Virus record (IMG/VR): IMGVR_UViG_2802429224_000008
Coordinates: 1-12,738 of that record
DNA: 12,738 nucleotides
Source of the DNA: a virus
Taxonomy: Duplodnaviria > Heunggongvirae > Uroviricota > Caudoviricetes
Direction: 5' to 3' (one strand)
In this document: positions 6,001 through 12,000 of the stretch, piece by piece
How positions within the stretch are numbered: the first letter of the stretch is position 1
How the letters are laid out: every line of letters begins with the position of its first letter
Program-made: the position numbers

Positions 6001-9000
6001 AGCATGTTTTTTACGTGCTGATGTTCCAGCCTGAAAGCGAAGAAGATTAATTTTTTCTCGCGTGTAGGGTGAAAATTTTGCGGGTTATGCGGGTTATTTC
6101 TGTGGATAAATCAGTATCCATATGATTATTAAAGGAATGACAGGAAAATCGTAACCCGCAAAATACCCAAAATAACCCGCAAAACGGCAGTTATAACCCG
6201 CAAAAGTGCGATTATAACCCGCAGAATTTCACAGTAAGGGTGTAAACAAGCGTAACTATCAACGTTAAAACCGGAGAGCAGACAGCATGACAGCACAGAT
6301 AGCGGCTTACGGGCGGCTGGTGGCTGACCCGCAGTTAAAGACCACCAGCAAGGGGACACAAATGGCGATGGCGAGTATGGCGGTTCCCCTGCCGTGCAGC
6401 CAGGCAGATGACGGAACGGCGACGATGTGGTTATCCGTCCTGGCGTTTGGCAGACAGGCCGACGCACTGGCAAAGCACCAGAAAGGCGAACTGGTGAGCG
6501 TGGCGGGTAACATGCAGGTAAGCCAGTGGACAGGTCAGAACGGCGAAACGCGGCAGGGCTGGCAGGTTATCGCAGACAGCGTAATCAGTGCGCGGACGGC
6601 GCGACCGGGCGGCAAAAAAGGCCAGCAGGGCCAGGCTACTGACGCACTGAACAGGGCGAAACAACAGACAGGCCAGCACGATGACCCGTACGGGGATAAC
6701 ATACCGTTTTAATTCACAGCAGCGAACAGAGTAATTACAGGGGAAGGCATGACAAAGCTGACCATTAACCGAAAACCGAAAGGCATTTACGGCACGCCGC
6801 AGAAAACGACGCAGGCGGCACAGCAGCAGGATAAAACCACGTCGGCGCATAAAGTGATGCCCGATAATCAGAACGCACAGCAGAGCCGCAAACAGAAGCC
6901 CACTGGGGTGACACCGTGGCGGCATATGACCAAACGCCAGCGCAAAAACCGCAGACGCGTTAACCGCCTCACTGAGTTGTGGCCTGACTTATTCAGCCGG
7001 GAAGCACCGAAGCCGCTTAAGGTGGGGATATTCGACGACCTGATGCAGGATCTCGCCGTCAGGGGGCTGGCATTCGGGCCAGGGGCATTACGTGCGACGC
7101 TGGCATCTTATGCGCAGTCTCCGCGCTATTACCGCGCCTTAATGGCTGGTGGTGCACGTTACGACCTGAAAGGCCAGCCATGTGGAGATGTGACACCACA
7201 GGAACAACAGGACGCAGAAACGCGGCTGATGATGCTGAATGAGAAGCGCAAGCATCAGGCGGCAAAGGAGAAGACAGGCGCATGATTCGTGACAGCAAAG
7301 CGGAAGAACTGGAGACTAAAGGCCTGTACCGGAGAGCGGCGGCGCGGTGGGCTGAGGTCATGCAGCTGGTGAACACCGATAAGGAGCGCGAACAGGTGGC
7401 AAAGTGTCGCGCGGAATGCATCCGTAAGGCAGCACGCCCACCTGTTATGGCGGATAACTTCGGGGCACTGAAAGAGGCTGTAAACCGCACTCATGCGGTG
7501 ATGGGGATGGAAGACGCGGGTAAATCCGTCTGGCGGAACTACCCGAAGCAGCCTGGCAGTAACCAGTGATGCCGGATATTATCCTGAAAAATGACCATCA
7601 CTCCCGTGGGCGGATAATATAAAATCCCGCATATGCGCACATACACAGACGAAGCCGGAACACTCCGGCTTTTTTTACGGGTCCTCCTGATGGGGTACCC
7701 TTACCGCGGGGCGACGGACGCGCGGGAATCGCCAAATTTTCGCATTTTTATCGGTCATCACCACCAGCGCAATTTATTGATAATGAAGGTTAAAAAAATT
7801 CCTGGTGTCGAAAACGCCTGTTTTTTGTTCATCACTGAATCATGCGCATCATGATACCAGGATACCCGGTATTGCTGCGTGATAACCCACAGGGCTGGTG
7901 ACGATGCGTTATGGTCTGTGCGTTGCCATCCTCCTGACCTGATGGCATTATCCGGCATGAACGAGCGGTTATTCTCCGTACTCTTAATCGTTGTTCATGG
8001 TTATTTGCTTTGTGGTAGCTGACATTTCCTGATGGCTTTTATCCTTCCGCCCCGTAATCACGGGGTATTTTTTTATCTGTGATTTGTTGTTCTTCGCTGT
8101 GTTGGTATGGGGAGTTCTGGCAATGATTCAGGCCGTCGCTTTCCTGGTACGTGATTTTTTACGTTCATTATTGTGCTGGTGGTAGTGTCACGGCACGTCA
8201 CGATATGTCACTATCACGTCACGCTGATGGCAAAAGCCAGGGTTAACCAGTACCGGAACGGGTAGCCCGATGTATTGTTACCGTCCTGCCGGCTGGTGGA
8301 GTAATTGATAACGGTTATCATCAACGGGAGGGGAGGATCAAATCCCTGTAGTCCTGGCCGTCCGGGACCGCCCGCCAACCCTTCTTCGCATCGCCGCAGG
8401 TTCGAAAACTTTTTTTGGGAAGGTGCGCACAGAGTTGATAGATAAAACCTATCAGAAGAAGTAGCATCAAACCCGCGCCATTGCTGGCATCGTTAAAAAA
8501 ACTCACTCCACCAGCAGGCCAAAAAACCGTGATTTTTCCGGTTTTATGGGCTGAAAAGGGTCTCCCTAAAAAACACCTCTCACACTGTCGGAGGGGATGG
8601 ATAATTTTCACGGGTCCTTTCCGGAGGTCTGAATACCGGGGGTACGGGTACGCGCAATTCTCAACTGTTTATGAAAATTTTTCGGGAAAAGTCAGATCCG
8701 TTCTTCTTCTCTGTAACTCATTGTTTAATCGTAAAATCATCAAAAAAAGAAAGGATCTGACAGTGGTCATTCTGGGCTAAAAATGACGTTATCAGATCCT
8801 TTCTCAGTTTTGTTCAATAATTGCGCGGCTGTCACTCACCTTTCTGTTGCCGTAATTTCTCCGGCACGTTTCCGGTTGTTTCCATCAGGTAGTCCTTCAG
8901 AATGCGGGGCAGGTTATCGGCAGTTTTAGCGCACGCATTACAGACGCGTGCTGTTTCTTTCCTCAGGCCCTCGATCATTGCCGGAGTCATCGCGGGGAAC

Positions 9001-12000
9001 TGCCTTTGCATTGTGAGCGGTAAACTATCCATGATCGAAGAAATCTGGCGCGCCAGACCACGAAGCGCATAGAGAACGAACTCAGTATCTGTAACTTCCC
9101 CCGTCTCCCTGGCGTTCTTCAGTTCCTGCCCGTCTGCCTGTGCTTTGGTGAGGCGGTAGCGTTCGTACTCTGTTGTGCCTGGCTGTAAATCTGATTCACC
9201 AGCAGCACGTAAATCATCAGGCTCCCTGCGGAGTTTTTCATTTTCGATGTCCTTCTCCCTCTGTGCATACCATTCGATCACCTGTGCAGAATTGAATGCC
9301 ACCTCCACACCTTTACCGCCACCAGATACATGAGGAAGCCCTTGCGTCTGCCAGCCTTCAATTGTGCGCGGATCAACACCGAAAATCTCCGCCAGTCTCT
9401 TTTTGTTAACATTCATTTATCAAATCCTCATCAAAAAACACCTCCGACATGAAATGTCAGGAAAACGGGATTTTATGGCGTTATGGTGTCGGAGGTTTCA
9501 GATTGTTGATTTTAATAAAAACAAACAGTTATGCGCGAGAAGTACCGACACGCTTTTCCCCTGAAAAATTTTCATAAACAGTTAAGAATTGCGCGTACCC
9601 GTCCCCCCGGCGCTTAAGGTTCCGGGAAGGACCCGCAGGAGATAGCTACCGTAAGGCGTAATTAAATATCCGGGGATGTGCCACGAAACAACCTGCTGAA
9701 TGCAGGTCAGCGTGATGACGGGAAATAAAGAGAATATACGGGAAGGAAAAAAATATTAGTTTGAAAACTAATGTCCAATTAAACTCTAACATGCGTCCCT
9801 GTAAACAATAACAAGTAAGCAATCAGAGTCTTTCTAATTTACGGGAGGATACTCCCGTACTTTTTTAAAGGCAACGTGAATTGCAACGTTTGTGATGTTT
9901 ACGGGTAAACAGTAACGCTTTTGATATGAATGTTTTTATCTGGTTGCTGTTTTTATTCAGTTAATGTTTATAGGGAATCTTTCAATGAAAAAAACACTGA
10001 TTGCGCTGGCGGTGGCGGCTTCTGCTGTGGTGTCTGGTTCTGCGATGGCTGCTGGCTGGGAACAAAACGGTACGGGTACTGATGTTGTGCTGGGAGGCAC
10101 ACTGACCCCGGTTGCGAAGGTAACTCCGTGGGAAGTAAAAACGGGTGATGCGGTAACTAACCTTGATGCGCAGGTTCAGAAAGGGCAAACCTCTGTCACT
10201 GTTAGTGTAAACCAGGCAATCCCTGTTCTGGGTATTCGTACTCAAACTGCGGATGTGTTCACGGGGATTGCCGGGATTTCTCCGCAGGTTGATTATGGTG
10301 GTGCGATTGATGTAAACGGTTTTTCTGCCGGGGTGACCACCCTGACTCTGGATGTGACTGATGCTAATGGTGAGAAAATGGGCACCATGTCCGCTCCATT
10401 TTTAGCCGGTGCCGGGGTGTCTCGTACAGGCTCCAGCGAAGATGCATATTCTGCCTATGTTTATGACGGTTATGATGTATCTTCCTTTAAAGGCGGACTT
10501 GGTGCTTCTGCAGAGCAAATATTGCCGGATCTGGCTACGGTGATTAGCCGTGTAGGTGCACTTGATTCTGGATTCACTGCTAATTTTAATCAACAGGGTT
10601 TAGCTAGCGGCAGCGTATGGCGCTCAACTCCATTTGAAAATACGGAAACCCAATATAGTGGCTTCTACGGCTCTGGTATTGAATCTGGCAGCAAAATTGC
10701 CATCACTCTTGATACGGCAGTTTCCGGTGATGGTGAGATTGCGTGGAAAGCTTCCCTGCCGGTGACTGTTACCTACATGTAATTTAGCGTCTCGTTAAAT
10801 TATTAAAACAAGCGGCGACGTTCTCCGTCGTCGCTTTGTTTCCTTCCCTTCAGTAACACCATATCCCGCTAAAGCTCTGACATAAATTTTTGTTGTCTGG
10901 TTGCGAATTCTCACCCTGGTGAATCTCCTGCACTACCTGTAATTTTTACGCAAAAAACCCTGGCATTTCTAAGCATGGTTATCGCAAATTTTGCGCAAAA
11001 CACCTTAACAATTCTTAACATCGATGCGCAGTTTTTACGGCCCGGGATAATGGTGGTTTTATACGCTATATAGTTCGTTATATGTTGAGCAAGAAACAGC
11101 CAAAATCAACATGGTAAAAATATATTCTGTTAAAATTCAACACATTAATAAGATGATGATGATGGATAAAAATTCAAAAATTAGCCTTTTTCCGCGCGTC
11201 CGTCGCCCCGCGGTAAGGGTACCCATCCAGGAGGACCCACGACGATCGGGGCGTTTCATCAACGTCATGCGTTATGCCGGATTAACTGCGTACGTAATAC
11301 GTACGGACATCGGGACAAAGACGAACAGTATTCTGGTTCAGTGCAAAACAACGTTAAACGTGGTTTTGCGTCCTGAGAGTCATCGTAATGGTTTTATGCG
11401 CCCTGCGTTGCGCTGGTGGGCTTTTCCACTATTAGTGGGAAACATGGCACCACATCCACCAGCTTAAACACGCTTCACCTTCCCGTTATCAGTCGCCACA
11501 ATTACGGCATTGTTTTCCATCACCACGGAGGCCATAACGATGACCGAAGCCGAAATGCTCAAAATGATTCGCCAGATTGCCGGGATCAGACCACCAGCAG
11601 GCAAACAGGAGGCCACGCAGCCGGACAGCGTTATCGCTGAGAACTATGCGCGTGTGGTGGCTGAGGTGATGCGCCGTGACGGTATCGAGCTAAACGGCGT
11701 TGATATGCGCGACATACGAATCAGAGTTCTGGAGATGTTGTCATATCGTCGCCGCGTGGAGATGTACCGGGAGAGCGAGAAAAATACTTACCAGTGGAAG
11801 AAGCCAGAGCGATTACGGCGGTAACCAGTTGATAAAAAGGCTCCTCAATTTTGAGGAGGGTAGCTGGTGGTGGTAAGCCGTTGATTAAGAGGCGGCTCAA
11901 AATTGAGCCGGGTTGCTGGTGGTGATAACTCATTGAGATTAAAGCAAAGCGCAAAATTGCGCCCTGTAGCTAGTGGCTGGCAGAATGTAAATTTACATTC

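Follow-up and report, generated by a model that had tools for sequence, protein, structure and literature searches.

We analysed a 12,738-nucleotide stretch of viral DNA (IMG/VR record IMGVR_UViG_2802429224_000008, positions 1 to 12,738; the whole stretch is called the window below), which by its Pfam gene content is nearly all of a phage-inducible chromosomal island (PICI)-type satellite of E. coli. The island encodes an intact Nu1-family small terminase subunit (TerS) beside a cohesive-end packaging site (cos), and it encodes no large terminase subunit (TerL). Residues ~101-194 of the TerS form a discrete module that is restricted to satellites and is under purifying selection, and related satellites join this module to different DNA-binding domains, which co-vary with the adjacent cosB. 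We propose, with a confidence that is about even, that the gene encodes an orthogonal satellite TerS, one that would bind the island's own cos and recruit the TerL of a helper phage directly.

Satellites that carry terS without terL are already a known kind (PMC10085698, PMC6092414): terS is a listed core function of PICIs (de Sousa 2023, PMC10085698), and terS-bearing PICIs of E. coli (IHE3034 and 18098) were noted in 2018 (PMC6092414). In the literature that we searched, there was no description of a cos-type, Nu1-family PICI TerS with a satellite-specific C-terminal half, of the modular pairing of such a half with phage-derived DNA-binding domains and cosB units, or of an inverting cos-terS-cos cassette, nor was there experimental work on satellite TerS proteins of the window's type. 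Gram-negative cos-type PICIs have so far been understood through Rpp, an adaptor that needs the helper's TerS to reach TerL. In the island family of the window, a full-length TerS occupies the rpp slot. If its C-terminal half does bind TerL directly, this would be a second route to the hijacking of lambda-type terminases, one that does not depend on TerS, and the natural chimeras, with one tail on at least three DNA-binding domains, could be used to map the unsolved TerS-TerL interface. The C-terminal module is also a practical annotation marker for telling satellite terS from prophage terS.

A Nu1-family terS without a terL

The initial annotation, made from the sequence alone, had described a Nu1-like terS on a satellite element, with no terL partner. 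The open reading frame (ORF) is present on the minus strand with the C-terminal sequence quoted there, and it encodes 194 residues (Table 1). Its place in the Nu1 family is supported by Pfam PF07471 (Phage_Nu1; E 1.9e-67, 226.4 bits against a cutoff of 30, profile positions 1-162 of 164), by PHROG 57, which matches residues 1-189 (E 9e-63), and by phmmer matches to lambda TerS 1-98 (6hn7_B, E 1.2e-38) and the gpNu1 DNA-binding domain (1j9i, E 3.3e-23). An AlphaFold2 (AF2) model with a mean predicted local distance difference test score (pLDDT) of 79 has a winged helix-turn-helix (wHTH) followed by helices at residues 43-75, 82-105, 111-139 and 145-180, the last two of which lie within codons 101-194 and have pLDDT values up to 91. 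Foldseek aligned the DNA-binding domain with the TerS domains 7lwr, 6hn7_B and 1j9i (target template modelling scores 0.72-0.91); it matched this domain only, and so gave no solved structure covering the C-terminal module. Lambda gpNu1 and phage 21 gp1 have the wHTH, a central coiled coil and the overall length in common with the window TerS, and in all three the gene lies directly 3′ of cosQ-cosN-cosB (R3-I1-R2-R1), which in the window is cos2. The DNA-binding domain and the R3 site of cos2 resemble those of phage 21, and in alignments the recognition helix, VDPRTIEGWQTQG, is phage-21-like. Unlike lambda and 21, the window has a 13-residue extension of the protein, a second, inverted cos at the 3′ end of the gene, and a cohesive end that is not lambda's. 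A scan for promoters and terminators near terS returned nothing above chance.

Several results place the gene on a satellite. The window has a terminal integrase, an AlpA-type regulator and its own primase/replication module (Pfam: int, AlpA, DUF4222, DUF927 and SSB), its gene order is that of EcCICFT073, and its relatives in complete E. coli chromosomes lie between the halves of yifB (A36), inside rclA (U90) and between cspD and clpS (SA53-3). These sister islands are 13-14 kb long, within the satellite size range of ~10-15 kb. Lambda-like Nu1 genes have an adjacent, overlapping terL (gpA), whereas the window terS has none. No terL, portal, tail or lysis gene was found in the window or its sister islands by Pfam and PHROG searches of the larger ORFs, by PGAP annotation or by terL tblastn, and a tblastn of lambda gpA and 21 gp2 against the available DNA of the 46 loci that encode the C-terminal module, which recovered terL in the positive control loci, found that none carries its own terL. 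The sole terL match among the 46 belongs to a prophage that surrounds one of them, locus L021. Because the sister islands stop at yifB, rclA and cspD/clpS without a terL, we reject the possibility that one lies just past the window, and an ordinary prophage TerS is ruled out by these terL-free islands, flanked by chromosomal genes, together with the 46-locus tblastn. The satellite nature of the element and the missing partner were thus borne out, as was the description of the DNA 3′ of the gene as cos1 and 1 kb of non-coding sequence: a complete inverted cos1 is present, and the ~1 kb past it (7570-8600) has no family matches.

A C-terminal module restricted to satellites

In lambda Nu1, the span equal to codons 101-194 comprises the self-assembly region and the TerL-binding tail. 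The window TerS is colinear and ungapped to residue 181 with lambda Nu1, phage 21 gp1 and PhiR5_1 Nu1, and then continues for the 13 extra residues. Over residues 1-100, 101-140 and 141-181, its identity is 67%, 48% and 17% to lambda, 77%, 45% and 22% to phage 21, and 81%, 62% and 46% to PhiR5_1, against a baseline of 62%, 48% and 32% between lambda and phage 21. The close tracking of lambda that the initial annotation reported for the N-terminal ~140 residues holds for residues 1-100, with divergence beginning near 100 rather than 140. Its claim of a mismatch to Nu1 over the last ~50 residues did not survive: the protein is a colinear homologue to residue 181, with a tail 46-54% identical to the PhiR5_1 type, and the Pfam and PHROG matches given above extend far enough to leave only the last 13 residues without a phage counterpart. 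Because lambda and phage 21 themselves fall to 32% identity over residues 141-181, the tail is a hypervariable specificity region in phages too. That of the window is a further type, nearest to the tails of PhiR5_1 and of P0065, a common prophage protein. TerS tail type tracks the N-terminal ~35 residues of the cognate TerL, which fits the published role of the C-terminal ~40 residues of Nu1 as the TerL-binding specificity domain (PMC9026076). Across residues 161-181, 10-11 of 21 positions of the window are the same in the PhiR5_1/P0065 tails, against 4 of 21 for lambda or 21, and the tail subtype of L021 has 8-9 of 21 in common with lambda; these counts, over 21 residues, are small and no more than suggestive.

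A database search with the full protein (the C-terminal 75 residues alone returned gene fragments only) identified a group of long-form proteins of 193-200 residues with a common C-terminal half and the motif YLMETTG[ND]VP[ED]K, of which the extension motif [ND]VP[ED]K is kept in every long-form protein aligned. Over residues 101-181, identity to the window is 62-100% for the long-form proteins and at most 54% for full-length proteins without the motif. When the last 85 residues were compared with 50,697 phage records, PhiR5_1 came closest (54% over 72 residues), and none of the records covers the extension. The loci examined that encode the module are nearly all satellite-sized islands with int, AlpA and primase genes, often accompanied by capsid and decoration homologues. 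Between subtypes of the module, the ratio of nonsynonymous to synonymous substitution rates (dN/dS) is 0.14-0.24 in both halves of the gene, with synonymous sites near saturation, and the module is retained across satellites with differing integrases, att sites and DNA-binding domains. Among 5,426 complete E. coli genomes, 36 match the window-type cassette at ≥80% identity, and 358 match the terS-cos segment of a sister type with a 180-residue TerS (that of L021).

The exception to the satellite setting is L022, a 4173-nt ENA metagenome contig with phage lysis genes, a Gifsy/SerU-type cos, a long-form TerS, an inverted 21-type cos and satellite flanks. Its TerS has a SerU-type DNA-binding domain and its two cos classes are in swapped order; the contig reflects either recombination between a phage and a satellite or a chimeric assembly at low coverage. 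In A36, the nearest complete-genome relative (94% DNA identity), terS (L001 14434-15017) is annotated as frameshifted.

DNA-binding domains, cosB and the proposed role

The N-termini that precede the module are mosaic. Over residues 1-100 and 141-181, P0057 has 97% and 29% identity to phage 21 gp1, and P0054 has 99% and 46% identity to P0065; P0055 has a SerU-type DNA-binding domain, and the 180-residue type has an unrelated N-terminus (MKLHLMNKK...) on the same module. When the terS genes of the window and the U90 island are compared, the synonymous divergence (dS) is 0.015 in the 3′ half and 0.30 in the 5′ half, placing a recombination breakpoint within the gene. At least three classes of DNA-binding domain are joined to the module, each paired with a different class of upstream cosB: the VDPRTIE[RG]WQ class with tgtcggtact (21 type), the CDVRTITGWQ class with cagatccgttcttcttc (Gifsy/SerU type), and the MKLHL class with ctggtggtggttttgttg. 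In all classes, a complete cosQ-cosN-cosB is kept 5′ of terS. Because domain class co-varies with cosB class, the N-terminal half probably reads the upstream cos, and the constant rear half would have another role; this is the strongest of the indirect evidence that we have. The same co-variation, in three classes, points indirectly to a cognate packaging site carried by the satellite itself.

We hypothesize that the N-terminal wHTH binds the R sites of cos2, and that the module would provide a self-assembly region of its own, separate from the helper's TerS, together with a tail that replaces the TerL-binding tail of Nu1. The module would recruit the gpA-type TerL of a lambdoid helper, which would then nick the island's cosN and package island concatemers into helper-made capsids, with no need for the helper's TerS. 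The restriction of the module to satellites, the purifying selection on it and the co-variation of domain and cosB argue for this redirection of the helper's TerL, which we infer. A redirection of helper TerL to satellite DNA is also presumed for the TerS of other PICIs and of Staphylococcus aureus pathogenicity islands (SaPIs), which are likewise small terminases without a large one, encoded beside a packaging site (PMC10085698, PMC6092414). SaPI TerS is pac-type, whereas the window TerS is cos-type (Nu1); in the latter the satellite-specific part is the C-terminal half, and the DNA-binding half differs little from phage proteins. One member lies inside a prophage: L021 (9077-21398, E. coli SCU-106) contains a helper-embedded PICI that interrupts the portal gene of a prophage of lambda type. 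The cosB of this PICI is satellite-specific, and its TerS joins the same module to an unrelated DNA-binding domain. A helper for an island with a Nu1-type DNA-binding domain was sought through the complete genome H164, where the island is at roxA/phoQ and not within a prophage.

Several points weigh against the proposal. The tail of the window TerS points to a PhiR5_1/P0065-type prophage as helper and its cosN to a SerU-type one, whose TerL has a 21-type N-terminus, so the two appear to imply different helpers. The DNA-binding domain is close to that of phages and therefore would not discriminate against phage DNA with a 21-type cosB; phages with a 21-type cosB could, for their part, package cos2 without the window TerS. 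The gene is frameshifted in A36 and deleted between both cos in the IMG/VR contigs L010 and L011, so it is dispensable for the persistence of an island. Last, the terS PICIs of IHE3034 and 18098 barely transferred in the 2018 tests (PMC6092414); their terS may be of another type.

We considered three other explanations, given here in falling order of likelihood. The first, which we regard as unlikely, is that the protein is an Rpp-like adaptor: it would form a hetero-oligomer with the helper's TerS through the conserved residues ~43-105 and give DNA specificity, the helper's TerS would contact TerL, and the module would be otherwise employed, for example in stabilising or insulating the complex. 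In EcCICFT073, which is of the same island family, rppA fills the same slot between a cos and an inverted cos, with flanking sequences as in the terS islands (after capsid, decoration and a 137-residue ORF, and before a conserved 93-residue ORF), and by position the window terS is thus the counterpart of rpp. Over residues 1-100 the protein is 67-81% identical to phage TerS, and this span corresponds to the part of lambda TerS that was crystallised with RppC (6hn7_B), and Rpp requires the helper's TerS (PMC6739421, PMC9026076). The analogy to Rpp drawn in the initial annotation is correct for the slot, but it does not extend to sequence or fold beyond the wHTH, or to the tail. The window TerS is 17% identical to RppA, and its likeness to RppC (6hlk) is confined to residues 5-54 (E 0.0057; Foldseek E 0.13), within the distantly related wHTH. 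Rpps have 135-153 residues, lack the C-terminal TerL-binding region and depend on the helper's TerS (PMC9026076), whereas the window TerS has 194 residues and a full, conserved tail colinear with the TerL-binding tail. On these grounds it is ruled out as a member of the Rpp family. The L021 type, furthermore, has the same module yet lacks most of the conserved 43-95 region, so heteromerisation through those residues cannot be general.

Somewhat less likely again is an interference decoy, a protein that binds phage-type cosB without recruiting the phage TerL and thereby blocks the packaging of 21-, P0065- and PhiR5_1-type phages, with the island itself packaged through cos1 by a Gifsy/SerU-type helper terminase. 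Helper interference is a hallmark of PICIs (PMC6739421), and P0057 and P0054 join DNA-binding domains 97-99% identical to phage domains to tails unlike those of the same phages. The R sites of cos1 are those of SerU-type prophages. Such prophages are found in 691 of the 5,426 genomes, and only two genomes, SA53-3 (L008) and STEC383, were seen to contain one together with the satellite. A decoy, however, requires neither a conserved tail nor a conserved extension, and a complete cosQ-cosN-cosB that co-varies with the domain is kept 5′ of the gene in all classes. The L021-type domain fits no phage cosB among those compared, and the module is still kept. Because that domain is unrelated and the cosB satellite-specific, the L021 protein is not a decoy for the cosB of the surrounding prophage, which supports TerL capture over a decoy role. 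That terS is an inert leftover from the capture of a phage cos-Nu1 segment and no longer serves any function is very improbable despite the A36 frameshift, the L010 and L011 deletions and the missing terL, given that the window gene is intact, that dN/dS is low in both halves, and that the module is kept across satellites differing in integrase, att site and DNA-binding domain.

The inverted cos cassette and neighbouring genes

The coordinates of the cassette and the backbone are collected in Table 1, where the cos subsites are predictions assigned by alignment. Of the two cos, the initial annotation of terS had mentioned cos1 only. The arrangement of two inverted cos is found in most relatives and in EcCICFT073, and two cosN sequences were already noticed by Fillol-Salom in 2018 (PMC6092414). 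The predicted cohesive ends, GGTACGGGTACG at cos1 and GGGACGGGTACG at cos2, differ from that of lambda (GGGCGGCGACCT) and are nearest to those of SerU-type prophages (GGTCTGGGGACG). In sister satellites, the middle six bases of the end are free (GGTACGGGTACG, GGTAGCCATACG, GGTACGTGTACG, GGTCATAGCACG) and the outer GGT...ACG and the flanks are fixed; the two cos sites of a single island have different cohesive ends in L009 and L012. The SerU-LTIIb-type prophages, whose cosB is of the cos1 class and whose cosN resembles the window's, are often beside toxin cargo (LT-IIb, subtilase).

Table 1. Features of the window, with the strand and the basis of each assignment
Feature	Position	Strand	Basis
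terS, Nu1-family small terminase, 194 residues, intact	8832-9416	-	ORF; Pfam PF07471; PHROG 57; PDB 6hn7_B, 1j9i
GAGGA Shine-Dalgarno, 8 nt 5′ of the terS ATG	9424-9428	-	sequence
wHTH DNA-binding domain, codons 1-68	9213-9416	-	alignments; Foldseek; AF2 helices 5-12, 16-24
C-terminal module, codons 101-194	8835-9116	-	long-form versus phage identity; dN/dS; AF2 helices
13-residue extension NVPEKLRQQKGE, codons 182-194, absent from phage TerS	8835-8873	-	alignments
cos2, directly 5′ of terS in the canonical cos-then-Nu1 layout, 21-type cosB	9439-9634	-	alignment with 21 and PhiR5_1 cos; blastn to 21-type cos
cos2 cosQ-like	9622-9634	-	alignment
cos2 predicted 12-nt cohesive end GGGACGGGTACG	9594-9605	-	alignment
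cos2 predicted R3	9536-9553	-	alignment
cos2 integration host factor (IHF)-like site	9514-9533	-	alignment
cos2 predicted R2	9485-9498	-	alignment
cos2 predicted R1	9439-9451	-	alignment
cos1, inverted, abuts the terS 3′ end, Gifsy-1/SerU-prophage cosB (CAGATCC)	8612-8807	+	alignment with SerU-LTIIb and Gifsy-1 cos
cos1 cosQ-like	8612-8624	+	alignment
cos1 predicted cohesive end GGTACGGGTACG	8641-8652	+	alignment
cos1 predicted R3	8691-8709	+	alignment
cos1 predicted R2	8744-8761	+	alignment
cos1 predicted R1	8790-8807	+	alignment
cos-terS-cos cassette, 76-nt inverted arms 8611-8686 and 9560-9635	8608-9635	.	inverted repeat, 84% complementary
Satellite backbone	1-7569	+	Pfam; synteny with islands between chromosomal genes
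Integrase	1-1242	+	Pfam
AlpA	1757-1963	+	Pfam
DUF4222	3616-3930	+	Pfam
DUF927 primase	3927-6050	+	Pfam
SSB	6287-6712	+	Pfam
ProQ/FinO	6749-7285	+	Pfam
PerC	7282-7569	+	Pfam

The orientation of the cassette varies among islands. L029 has the window's integrase and the cassette in the opposite orientation. Between L017 and L018 (9784-10807) the cassette is 99% colinear, with the flanks swapped and reverse-complemented. The break points fall within the inverted cos arms. If both cos were cut, the fragment between them would carry the same overhang at either end, so the cassette could conceivably be flipped by terminase; ordinary recombination is the simpler explanation. These results can be combined with the direct capture of TerL in one broader reading, which we regard as improbable: the module would be a general TerL-capture and insulation domain that makes the large terminase of many lambdoid helpers usable without their TerS, the DNA-binding half and cosB would be swapped in from the phages that the satellites meet, and the cassette would be a flip-flop element, inverted either through recombination or through the cutting by terminase of two identical overhangs and their rejoining, that reverses the direction of packaging and with it the flanking host genes that are co-transduced.

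Some sister islands have a second small-terminase-like gene, DUF1441, before cos1 (L009 11007-11516, L012 8229-8777, L011 3436-3984), and its product matches PHROG 141, annotated as 'terminase small subunit'. The window has no DUF1441, and no remnant was seen when one was sought in 7570-8600. In L010 and L011, DUF1441 and both cos, 409 bp apart, are retained and the Nu1-type terS is lost. The DUF1441 proteins and a 141-residue ORF of U90 were tried as candidate Rpps and rejected, with no PDB match for either.

Outside the cassette, the window has an orphan K88-type fimbrial subunit gene (9964-10782; Pfam Fimbrial_K88, E 2.8e-51) whose start resembles a signal peptide and which has neither an usher nor a chaperone gene near it. 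A36 has a homologue at the equivalent position, and the gene is probably island cargo. A ProQ/FinO-domain protein and two PerC-family regulators are encoded at 6749-7569 and 12367-12738; Gram-negative PICIs commonly carry PerC-like genes, one of which, from a different PICI, represses the enterocyte effacement locus (LEE) (PMC11773190). Many of these islands, EcCICFT073 among them, have a conserved ORF of ~93-104 residues from PHROG 1561, a family of unknown function, immediately outside the cos cassette (window 11510-11824, L021 10666-10947, L060 13374-13655), and in L021 it begins 11 nt past the terS stop codon.

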